Positions 5,880-7,314 of a stretch of 10,601 bases of DNA are shown here, piece by piece. The position numbers and the translations under genes are program-made. This DNA comes from a virus. Its lineage: Duplodnaviria; Heunggongvirae; Uroviricota; Caudoviricetes. Where the stretch lies: IMG/VR virus record IMGVR_UViG_2695420876_000011; one strand, 5' to 3'. Every line of letters starts with the position of its first letter. Within the stretch, counting starts at the first letter, position 1. Under the pieces are notes generated by a model, which was not told the DNA's origin, ran no database searches, and worked only from the letters and a program-made list of their open reading frames with translations.

Positions 5880-5908
5880 TTGAAAAATAAGTTTATAGTC
5901 ATTATTAT
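5880..5908 (+). promoter_or_regulatory. Candidate sigma70 promoter for the three-gene operon
   Basis: TTGAAA (5880-5885), 17-bp spacer, TATTAT (5903-5908), in an AT-rich stretch about 55 bp upstream of the ATG at 5963. Confidence 0.35.
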
Positions 5909-5962
5909 ACGCCAACTTAGCTGGCCCTTGGATGGGTTATTCTGCAAAATTAGAAGAATAAG

Positions 5963-6532
5963 ATGAACCAGTGCACACAGTGGTTGGGGTATCATGGCAC
6001 CAGTGTTTTATGTGCTAATTCAATCATTAATACAAATTTTAATGTCAGTAGACAAGAAAATGATTGGCTTGGTACCGGAGCCTATTTTTTCATTGAGTCG
6101 CCGGGATTGTTGGCCCCAGAAGAAAAAGCGGCTCAATGGGCTAACATTAGGGCTAGTAATGCGAGACCTAACTATACTAATCTAGCAGTGTTAGAAGCTA
6201 CCATTGAAGTTGAGCAGTATCTTGACTTAGACAATGATGAGCACATAGCCGCTCTCAACAAAGTGAGAGAGGTTTACATGGAAATCATGAAGTCTGAGGG
6301 TAAGAAACCAACTGGTAACAGATTGTTTGACAAATGCTGTTTTTGTAACTATGTAATGCATGAGCATGGTATTGACGCCCTGATACGTAAAGAGTATATC
6401 AAAACTACAAGAGAGGAGCTTGATTATGGTTTTGAAGGGGGAGTTCCTAACTGCAGAGTCTTATGCGTTAAAGACCCTAAAGCGAGTGTTAAGTCCATAC
6501 GATTCGCGGTCGAGAGAAGGATAGTACGATGA
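5963..6532 (+). CDS. Putative ADP-ribosyltransferase-fold protein (H-Y-E-class-like motifs), candidate toxin or effector of a three-gene module
   Basis: The 189-aa product has an N-terminal GYHGTSVLCANSII segment resembling the His-Gly-Ser/Thr NAD-binding strand of diphtheria toxin, exotoxin A, PARP and Tpt1-type enzymes (YHGT), followed about 30 residues later by G-x-Y-F-F (GTGAYFFIES) resembling the aromatic Y-x10-Y region. Acidic residues further downstream could supply the catalytic Glu. Its stop overlaps the next start (ATGA at 6529-6532). Confidence 0.5.
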   Translation: MNQCTQWLGYHGTSVLCANSIINTNFNVSRQENDWLGTGAYFFIESPGLLAPEEKAAQWANIRASNARPNYTNLAVLEATIEVEQYLDLDNDEHIAALNKVREVYMEIMKSEGKKPTGNRLFDKCCFCNYVMHEHGIDALIRKEYIKTTREELDYGFEGGVPNCRVLCVKDPKASVKSIRFAVERRIVR

Positions 6533-6894
6533 ACATCAATTTATGGCTCGAAAAGACCTTGGACTCTATAAGGTCAACTGATCCGAAAGCTCTCATGGTG
6601 AGGATGGAGCGGTATGGATTGATTGAAGATGATGTTAATAAAAATAAGGAAATGTCTCATTCTGGTTATGAATATACAGTTTGTGAGGATCTTCCTAGAG
6701 AGGTTCCTTTTGCGTCCTATTTTTTCATTGATAACGCTTCGTATCATGAAGAATCTATAAATGCTTTATCCGTGCAGTTGACTTTCACAACAGCGCCGCG
6801 TGAAGCGGCGTTTTCATTGGCTTCACGTCCAGTGTTTTATACATCAGAGATTGCTTGTGGAAATTCTCTGGATCATATTGCCCAGGCTGCTTAA
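6529..6894 (+). CDS. Hypothetical protein (121 aa), candidate antitoxin or adaptor partner
   Basis: Translationally coupled to the upstream gene (ATGA overlap) and followed 1 nt after its stop by the SecB-like gene. No recognisable domain. The C-terminus is rich in hydrophobic and aromatic residues (FSLASRPVFYTSEIA). Confidence 0.4.
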   Translation: MNINLWLEKTLDSIRSTDPKALMVRMERYGLIEDDVNKNKEMSHSGYEYTVCEDLPREVPFASYFFIDNASYHEESINALSVQLTFTTAPREAAFSLASRPVFYTSEIACGNSLDHIAQAA

Positions 6895-6895
6895 T

Positions 6896-7282
6896 ATGAA
6901 ATTTCAATTAAATAAGAATCAAATAGAAAAGTTAAGTATTGAACATTTTATAAATGAATCATCTATTAAAAACAGTTTTTCATTTTCACATACATGCAAG
7001 TATGATGAAGAAAAGAATAATGAGTTTATCATTTCTTTTAAATTTGAACTTACATCTGACAATGGTTTTAAACTTATTTTTACGCATAATTTCTTTTTTG
7101 AATGCGATGAACCAATTACAGAAGAGTTTTTACAGTCACATTACACATCAGTGAACGCTCCTGCTATTGCCTATCCTTATGTAAGAGCATTTGTGGCAAC
7201 ATTACTTTTAAACGCAGGCTTAGAGTCTGTTTTATTGCCTGCTGTTAATTTTGTTGAGCATGCTAAATCGCAAGATAAATGA
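6896..7282 (+). CDS. SecB-like chaperone (small SecB-family protein)
   Basis: The 128-aa product aligns by eye to E. coli SecB: N-terminal FQLNKNQIEKLSIEHF versus FQIQRIYTKDISFEAP, and C-terminal NAPAIAYPYVRAFVATLLLNAGLESVLLPAVNF versus [33 protein letters not shown] (pattern PY.R...........G.....L.PVNF). The ATG lies 1 nt after the preceding stop. Confidence 0.65.
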   Translation: MKFQLNKNQIEKLSIEHFINESSIKNSFSFSHTCKYDEEKNNEFIISFKFELTSDNGFKLIFTHNFFFECDEPITEEFLQSHYTSVNAPAIAYPYVRAFVATLLLNAGLESVLLPAVNFVEHAKSQDK

Positions 7283-7285
7283 TTA

Positions 7286-7314
7286 AAATGAGAGCAAATA
7301 AATTGCTCTCATTT
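7286..7314. terminator. Perfect 12-bp inverted repeat hairpin between convergent operon and integrase
   Basis: AAATGAGAGCAA-ATAAA-TTGCTCTCATTT. It lies 4 nt after the stop of the SecB-like gene and overlaps the integrase stop codon (7309-7311), so it could terminate both convergent transcripts. Confidence 0.5.

Follow-up and report, generated by a model that had tools for sequence, protein, structure and literature searches.

The window (the whole 10,601-nucleotide stretch of DNA that was analysed) carries a compact three-gene operon beside a convergent integrase gene; its features are collected in Table 1, where the genes bear the names of the published system with which they are compared below. 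An ORF check confirmed the three frames at the coordinates that an earlier note on this DNA had given them, together with their tight coupling: the start of gene 2 and the stop of gene 1 overlap as ATGA, and the TAA of gene 2 is separated from the ATG of gene 3 by a 1-nt gap. At about 0.27–0.32, the G+C content of cmdC is lower than that of cmdT and cmdA, which is about 0.40.

Table 1. Features of the three-gene operon and its immediate surroundings, in window positions
Feature	Position	Strand	Remark
cmdT (gene 1), ADP-ribosyltransferase toxin, 189 aa	5963..6532	+	one-residue variant (I187) of WP_097333619.1
cmdA (gene 2), antitoxin, 121 aa, C-terminus ...AQAA	6529..6894	+	identical to WP_053886482.1
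cmdC (gene 3), SecB-like TAC chaperone, 128 aa from ATG 6896	6896..7282	+	identical to WP_053886483.1
cmdT Shine-Dalgarno region, native, weak, ATTAGAAGAATAAG	5949..5962	+	14-mer quoted by Mets et al.
Sigma-70-like promoter candidate, TTGAAA-17 nt-TATTAT	5880..5908	+	10/12 consensus positions
Terminator hairpin, 12-bp stem, 5-nt loop	7286..7314	+	between convergent cmdC and int
DNA span of the published Mets et al. construct	5845..7328	+	primer ends
Integrase gene, convergent with cmdC	7309..8478	-	

The site upstream of cmdT that had been called a near-consensus promoter is present, and it falls within the 118-bp upstream region that has been cloned (see below), but sites of this sort are not enriched in this AT-rich region, where four were found and 6.3 are expected. 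Because of this lack of enrichment, 5880..5908 is a plausible candidate on its sequence and does not stand out statistically above the AT-rich background. The strong hairpin 3' of the operon held up when it was folded (dG -15.5 kcal/mol, z = -5.67, 0/200 shuffles as stable). It overlaps the stop codon of the integrase gene. Its T-tract is weak, for which reason a simple scan for terminators passed over it; Mets et al. (bioRxiv 10.1101/2024.02.24.581848) had it in their construct as the "native terminator" predicted with ARNold. An 82-aa ORF at 5718..5966 was considered as a fourth gene and judged likely to be spurious: it spans the promoter region, has an AT-rich sequence, carries no annotation in RefSeq and is absent 5' of the Serratia homologue, and the functional fragment that was cloned begins at 5845 and leaves out most of it.

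Comparison with CmdTAC of E. coli O112ab:H26

The locus is almost certainly the CmdTAC toxin-antitoxin-chaperone (TAC) anti-phage system of the E. coli O112ab:H26 type, here adjoining a prophage integrase. The journal version of the study by Mets and colleagues that deals with this type reportedly appeared in Cell Host & Microbe in 2024. Their preprint of that year characterised "CmdTAC from E. coli O112ab:H26" with the proteins CmdT WP_097333619.1, CmdA WP_053886482.1 and CmdC WP_053886483.1 (Mets et al., bioRxiv 10.1101/2024.02.24.581848). The parallel locus in the RefSeq genome NZ_CP070071.1 (L001), whose coding sequences at 12084..13403 are annotated with these three accessions, is 99.9 % identical to window positions 5880..7314. 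When nucleotides and translations are compared directly with the RefSeq locus, genes 2 and 3 and the integrase gene show 0 differences and gene 1 shows one, T here and G there at position 6522, by which CmdT has I187 in the window and R187 in WP_097333619.1 (188/189 residues identical). The upstream region, Shine-Dalgarno sequence and terminator are also the same in the two. The left flanks differ, being an NleG/EspW/EspM2 effector region that abuts an IS5 remnant in the window and the end of a P2-like prophage in NZ_CP070071.1.

The DNA that was cloned by Mets et al. can also be recognised directly. Ten primer sequences from their primer table (Dataset S1) map collinearly onto the window between 5845 and 7328, and the sole mismatch, shared among the primers that lie across that site, is once more at 6522. 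The 3' parts of MT13_fragment1_fwd (5845..5871) and MT13_terminator_rev (7292..7328) match with 0 mismatches, and the internal junction primers map to 6508..6532, 6870..6894 and 7214..7239. The fragment-1 forward primer starts 118 bp 5' of the cmdT ATG (5963 - 118 = 5845), as the published methods state. The Shine-Dalgarno 14-mer quoted in that work occurs once in the window, directly 5' of the ATG at 5963, and 0/200 shuffles contain it. In addition, the "120AA121/DD" CmdA mutant of the same authors fits gene 2, which encodes 121 amino acids and ends in Ala-Ala.

Judged by these sequence comparisons the window has an allele, different in one residue, of a system that has been characterised by experiment, and for that reason the locus is already known. 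The window corresponds to contig CYAG01000065.1 of assembly GCA_001277575.1. The exact I187 protein is found on 12 independent public contigs, so I187 is a circulating allele; position 187 is R, K or N in close CmdT homologues and I in the window. The earlier note had read the trio as a toxin-antitoxin-chaperone operon with an ADP-ribosyltransferase (ART) toxin and a SecB-like chaperone, which is correct in function according to the published match and the fold and profile analyses. The novelty that it proposed for the trio is lost, since the accessions, the primers and the Shine-Dalgarno sequence match the published system, which makes this an already characterised phage module. Its further suggestion that no TAC system with an ART-fold toxin had been described, and that this might be a new family, was wrong. 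The family was reported in 2022 as PD-T4-9/CmdTAC of E. coli ECOR22 (Vassallo et al., PMC9519451), and PD-T4-9, which now goes by the name CmdTAC, from "chaperone-mediated defence", was dissected mechanistically in 2024 (Vassallo, Doering & Laub, PMC11618068), so this kind of TAC system, with an ART toxin, had been described before.

Toxin, antitoxin and chaperone

The ADP-ribosyltransferase likeness that had been noticed in gene 1 is supported by the analysis, in which CmdT has the ART fold (structure model pLDDT 78.8) of the clade of diphtheria toxin and exotoxin A, whose members are marked by an H-Y-[E/D/Q] triad. In a joint alignment of 92 sequences from both CmdT subtypes H11 and Y41 are invariant, and W35, G39, A56, W59 and D88 are nearly so; mutation of Y41 inactivates the ECOR22 CmdT (PMC11618068). 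The third position of the triad is ambiguous, in that N163 is conserved throughout the family and E144 is invariant in the close subfamily only. With a CmdT profile, 1,494 relatives were recovered at E <= 0.001 from 1.84 billion representatives. Pfam, NCBIfam and PHROGs supplied no informative name for gene 1 (PHROGs gave families of unknown function only), a PDB sequence search with the gene 1 family profile found nothing significant, and tblastn of gene 1 against phage genomes gave two weak partial matches only.

CmdA has the features of its family, namely a helical N-terminus and a long C-terminal extension that closes with an xAA degron for ClpX. Its homologues from related loci are helical at the N-terminus, vary in the middle and finish in xAA, and where CmdA ends in AQAA they end in LAA, FAA, MAA or QAA. 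No match to gene 2 was found in Pfam, in PADLOC (including PD-T4-9_B) or in a PDB sequence search, and NCBIfam and PHROGs were uninformative, the latter returning families of unknown function only.

The description of gene 3 as SecB-like is borne out by three lines of evidence. CmdC matches the Pfam SecB family PF02556 (E = 4.3e-6, 27.1 bits, gathering cut-off 26); its family profile matches only SecB chains in the PDB; and its AlphaFold model (pLDDT 89.3) finds as its best PDB match M. tuberculosis Rv1957 with the ChAD peptide (5MTW, E = 8e-8, TM ~0.7), followed by the housekeeping SecBs of H. influenzae and E. coli (1OZB, 1FX3, 1QYN). The CmdC sequence alone found nothing significant in a PDB sequence search. 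A housekeeping SecB that acts in protein export was considered and rejected: the NCBIfam SecB models give CmdC 15–24 bits against cut-offs of 103–181, and cmdC lies at a prophage end, not in a yibN-grxC-secB-gpsA operon. On both counts, score and setting, RefSeq misleads in naming it "protein-export chaperone SecB".

Function, mechanism and relation to other systems

The experiments of Mets et al. (bioRxiv 10.1101/2024.02.24.581848) were done with the R187 version. CmdTA without the chaperone inhibits growth, and rescue by CmdC is partial; the toxicity is lost in clpP and clpX mutants, is kept in a lon mutant, and is abolished by an AA-to-DD change at the end of CmdA. Incorporation of 35S-Met is specifically blocked by CmdT, which in the PURE system blocks synthesis only when NAD+ is present. 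It labels mRNA and a model RNA oligonucleotide in a sequence-selective, NAD+-dependent ADP-ribosylation, while protein, the DNA version, homopolymers and the reverse complement are unlabelled. When E. coli K-12 carries the operon, it is protected against Tevenvirinae (Bas43, T4 and T6) and the siphovirus Bas34. A phage trigger was identified in that study for HigBAC only. Neutralisation by CmdC, RNA ADP-ribosylation and abortive defence are published for the R187 version.

The following sequence of events is proposed. In the uninfected cell CmdT would be kept inactive by CmdA, and CmdC would shield CmdA from ClpXP by binding its C-terminal chaperone-addiction region. During infection by T-even and some other phages CmdC would be drawn away from CmdA, which would then be degraded by way of its C-terminal Ala-Ala degron. 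The freed CmdT would use NAD+ to ADP-ribosylate single-stranded mRNA, with the consequence that translation stops and the infection is aborted. Two details can be filled in from ECOR22 only: the trigger would be newly made major capsid protein, and the modified site would be N6 of the adenine in GA. In ECOR22 CmdTAC the trigger is the newly made major capsid protein Gp23 and CmdT modifies N6 of adenine in GA dinucleotides (PMC11618068).

The present system and ECOR22 CmdTAC share the T-A-C gene order, an exotoxin-A/diphtheria-toxin-like ART fold with a conserved His and a Tyr that is essential at position 41 in ECOR22, an antitoxin with an xAA end that is degraded by ClpP, a homologous SecB-like chaperone (PADLOC PD-T4-9_C, PDLC04071, E = 3.7e-35), an mRNA target, a translation block and defence against T-even phages. 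They differ in prophage type and in that toxin and antitoxin are very divergent (CmdT matches PADLOC PD-T4-9_A, PDLC04068, marginally at E = 0.0072, and CmdA has no PD-T4-9_B match); the antitoxin is also longer here, with 121 aa against ~77 profile positions. As the homology of this CmdT to the ECOR22 type is remote, the ECOR22 details (the Gp23 trigger and N6-adenine modification in GA) may fail to transfer to it. It is possible, although on balance we doubt it, that the O112ab:H26 subtype is functionally distinct, with a CmdC that senses another phage protein and a CmdT that recognises another RNA motif or modifies another atom; CmdC could sense a different phage protein, since the system also protects against the siphovirus Bas34.

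A further question of kinship is whether the toxin and antitoxin belong to the PD-T4-9 family at all. They could instead form an independent ART-toxin TAC family, analogous to that of ECOR22, that arose when an unrelated toxin-antitoxin pair with an ART toxin acquired a chaperone of the CmdC type. The very uneven PADLOC matches just given (marginal for the toxin and none for the antitoxin, yet strong for the chaperone) accord with such an origin, and the fall in G+C content at cmdC fits a modular exchange of the kind that Mets et al. brought about artificially in a CmdTA-HigC hybrid (bioRxiv 10.1101/2024.02.24.581848). Moreover, a narrow HMM built from the 12 closest CmdT homologues missed a canonical Vibrio CmdT, and the link to canonical CmdT needed a profile-profile comparison and the joint alignment. 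The former, done with hhalign against 38 canonical PD-T4-9_A proteins, matched the N-terminal 105 columns with E = 2.5e-6 and a probability of 88.8 %; that the match is limited to columns 4-120 favours separate families, while its significance argues for a single one. So do the residues H11, Y41, W35, G39, A56, W59 and D88, which are conserved in both subtypes, the same length, gene order and AA-ended antitoxin, and the two PD-T4-9_A models in PADLOC that match 22 and 16 of 55 scanned sequences (the window protein, 53 relatives from the window-family profile and one canonical Vibrio CmdT). We consider an independent family improbable, and whether or not it is a true member of the PD-T4-9 family, the system is already described experimentally.

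The earlier note had suggested a role in abortive infection or prophage maintenance. The first of these stands, as abortive-infection-type defence is what Mets et al. report. That the operon is natively in the main a prophage-stabilising addiction module, or is in decay, giving no active defence and perhaps with its toxin attenuated by I187, is very improbable in our judgement. Its position at the integrase end of a prophage beside an IS5 pseudogene would suit such a role, as would its rarity in E. coli and the replacement by I187 of a basic or polar residue that is conserved in homologues. On the other hand, the three frames are intact and tightly coupled, the exact I187 protein recurs on the 12 independent contigs, and the R187 version is strongly phage-protective when expressed from a plasmid (Mets et al.). 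A prophage-end "moron" position is, besides, typical of defence genes, and ECOR22 cmdTAC likewise sits in a prophage, in a hypervariable region of a P2-like one (bioRxiv 10.1101/2024.02.24.581848).

Reading the operon as CmdTAC also sets it apart from the classical TAC systems HigBA1-Rv1957 of M. tuberculosis, HigBAC of E. coli NT1F31 and MqsRAC of E. coli C496_10. In these too the antitoxin has a C-terminal chaperone-addiction extension and is protected by a SecB-like chaperone, and they also defend against phages, but their toxins are HigB- or MqsR-type RNases and not an ADP-ribosyltransferase, and HigA of NT1F31, unlike CmdA, is not ClpXP-dependent. Two other ART toxins that act on nucleic acids work without a chaperone: DarT of DarTG modifies single-stranded DNA and is neutralised by a macrodomain enzyme, and RhsP2, which has structured RNAs as its targets, is secreted as a T6SS effector.

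Distribution, annotation and genomic setting

The co-occurrence of the three genes that had been foreseen as a check was found in related loci (L002-L011), where the order toxin, small ORF and SecB-like gene recurs in Serratia, Pantoea, Vibrio, Xenorhabdus, Photorhabdus, an Erwiniaceae isolate and a Saprospiraceae MAG, often beside integrases or P2-type replication genes. In RefSeq genes 1 and 2 are each labelled "hypothetical protein" and gene 3 is labelled "protein-export chaperone SecB". PADLOC v2 recognises the chaperone only, its profiles failing on the toxin and antitoxin. With such uninformative labels and only the chaperone recognised, a characterised defence system is invisible to routine pipelines, and because current defence-finder profiles miss the T and A components the distribution of this subtype is under-counted. 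The practical value of the present result is therefore the annotation of a characterised defence system; as a discovery it has none, the system having been published already. The TAC/ART architecture could be inferred from raw sequence, and claims of novelty need a check of the literature.

Of 5,426 complete E. coli genomes, 2 have the cmdTAC locus, and both share synteny with the window over its positions 4838..10601, a stretch that contains the IS5-family pseudogene, cmdTAC, the integrase gene and yfdP/Q/R-type early genes. The whole window was found as a contiguous stretch in no complete E. coli genome. Its left 4.8 kb are a different element, the effector-bearing end of a lambdoid prophage. 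Two NleG genes, EspW, EspM2, DinI and pieces of tail-fibre genes lie there, and O157:H7 and EPEC E110019 have regions with 99 % identity to it.

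Setting and composition of the cmdTAC locus

To the left of cmdTAC, positions 1..4867 of the window make up the effector-bearing end of a lambdoid prophage and encode several effectors, a DinI-like gene and tail-fibre fragments (table below); this region is 99% identical to sequences of O157:H7 and of EPEC E110019. Among the complete E. coli genomes of the collection searched, none links it to the cmdTAC side. The effector region meets the cmdTAC/integrase block at a degraded IS5-family transposase. The same IS5-family remnant flanks cmdTAC in NZ_CP070071.1, where the end of a P2-like prophage lies on its far side.

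Features of the window and of two loci of CmdT relatives
Sequence	Feature	Position	Strand	Remarks
Window	NleG U-box effector	646..1125	+	
Window	EspW	1256..2314	-	
Window	NleG U-box effector, second	2393..3043	-	
Window	EspM2	3226..3816		IpaB/EvcA family
Window	DinI-like gene	4318..4566	-	
Window	Tail-fibre C-terminal fragments	within 1..4867		
Window	IS5-family transposase, degraded	4838..5700		frameshifted, internal stops
L014	Small ORF	1317..1493		precedes ART
L014	ART	1490..2101		
L020	Small ORF	4813..4983		precedes ART
L020	ART	4980..5582		

Along the operon cmdT and cmdA have a GC content of about 0.40 (compared over positions 5963..6750), which declines to 0.27–0.32 in cmdC (compared over positions 6750..7350), and PADLOC places cmdC far nearer to the ECOR22-type family than the other two genes; both properties fit a picture in which TAC systems exchange their chaperone and toxin-antitoxin modules. 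A single T/G polymorphism at position 6522 distinguishes the window from RefSeq WP_097333619.1 and from the published primers, and changes CmdT residue 187 from Arg in WP_097333619.1 to Ile. In close CmdT homologues this residue is R, K or N, and the I187 allele is carried by 12 public contigs.

Annotation of the locus

The characterised CmdTAC locus (window 5963..7282; locus L001, 12084..13403) falls in an annotation gap: in RefSeq/PGAP the toxin and the antitoxin each appear as "hypothetical protein" and the chaperone as "protein-export chaperone SecB", and the C component is the only one that PADLOC v2.0.0 detects at a significant level. Gene callers place an additional 82-aa ORF on the public assembly (5718..5966, + strand); its stop and the start codon of cmdT share an ATGA. 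This ORF is AT-rich, covers the promoter region, has neither a Pfam match nor a RefSeq annotation and lies mostly beyond the functional cloned fragment, so it is probably spurious.

Relatives of CmdT

CmdT-type ART relatives are present at 35 loci (L012–L046) in Verrucomicrobiota, Planctomycetota, Rhizobiales and Burkholderiales, and no SecB-like ORF was found near any of them. In about two-thirds of these loci the ART lies beside a small ORF with the conserved C-terminal motif ...EFLVxHGFxxxxGKLTKRYGG, which usually ends just upstream of the ART start or overlaps it (two examples are tabulated). Neither protein of these pairs matches a Pfam family. In these pairs the CmdT-type toxin family seems to take a two-gene form, with the partner gene first and no chaperone.

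Searches of phage genomes with CmdT (tblastn) gave weak, partial matches in Streptococcus satellite phage Javan245 (MK448382.1, 4969..5301; 28% identity, E = 1e-4) and in a human-gut "Bacteriophage sp." contig (MT837118.1, 4029..4286; 34% identity, E = 6e-8), both of which lie in unannotated sequence.
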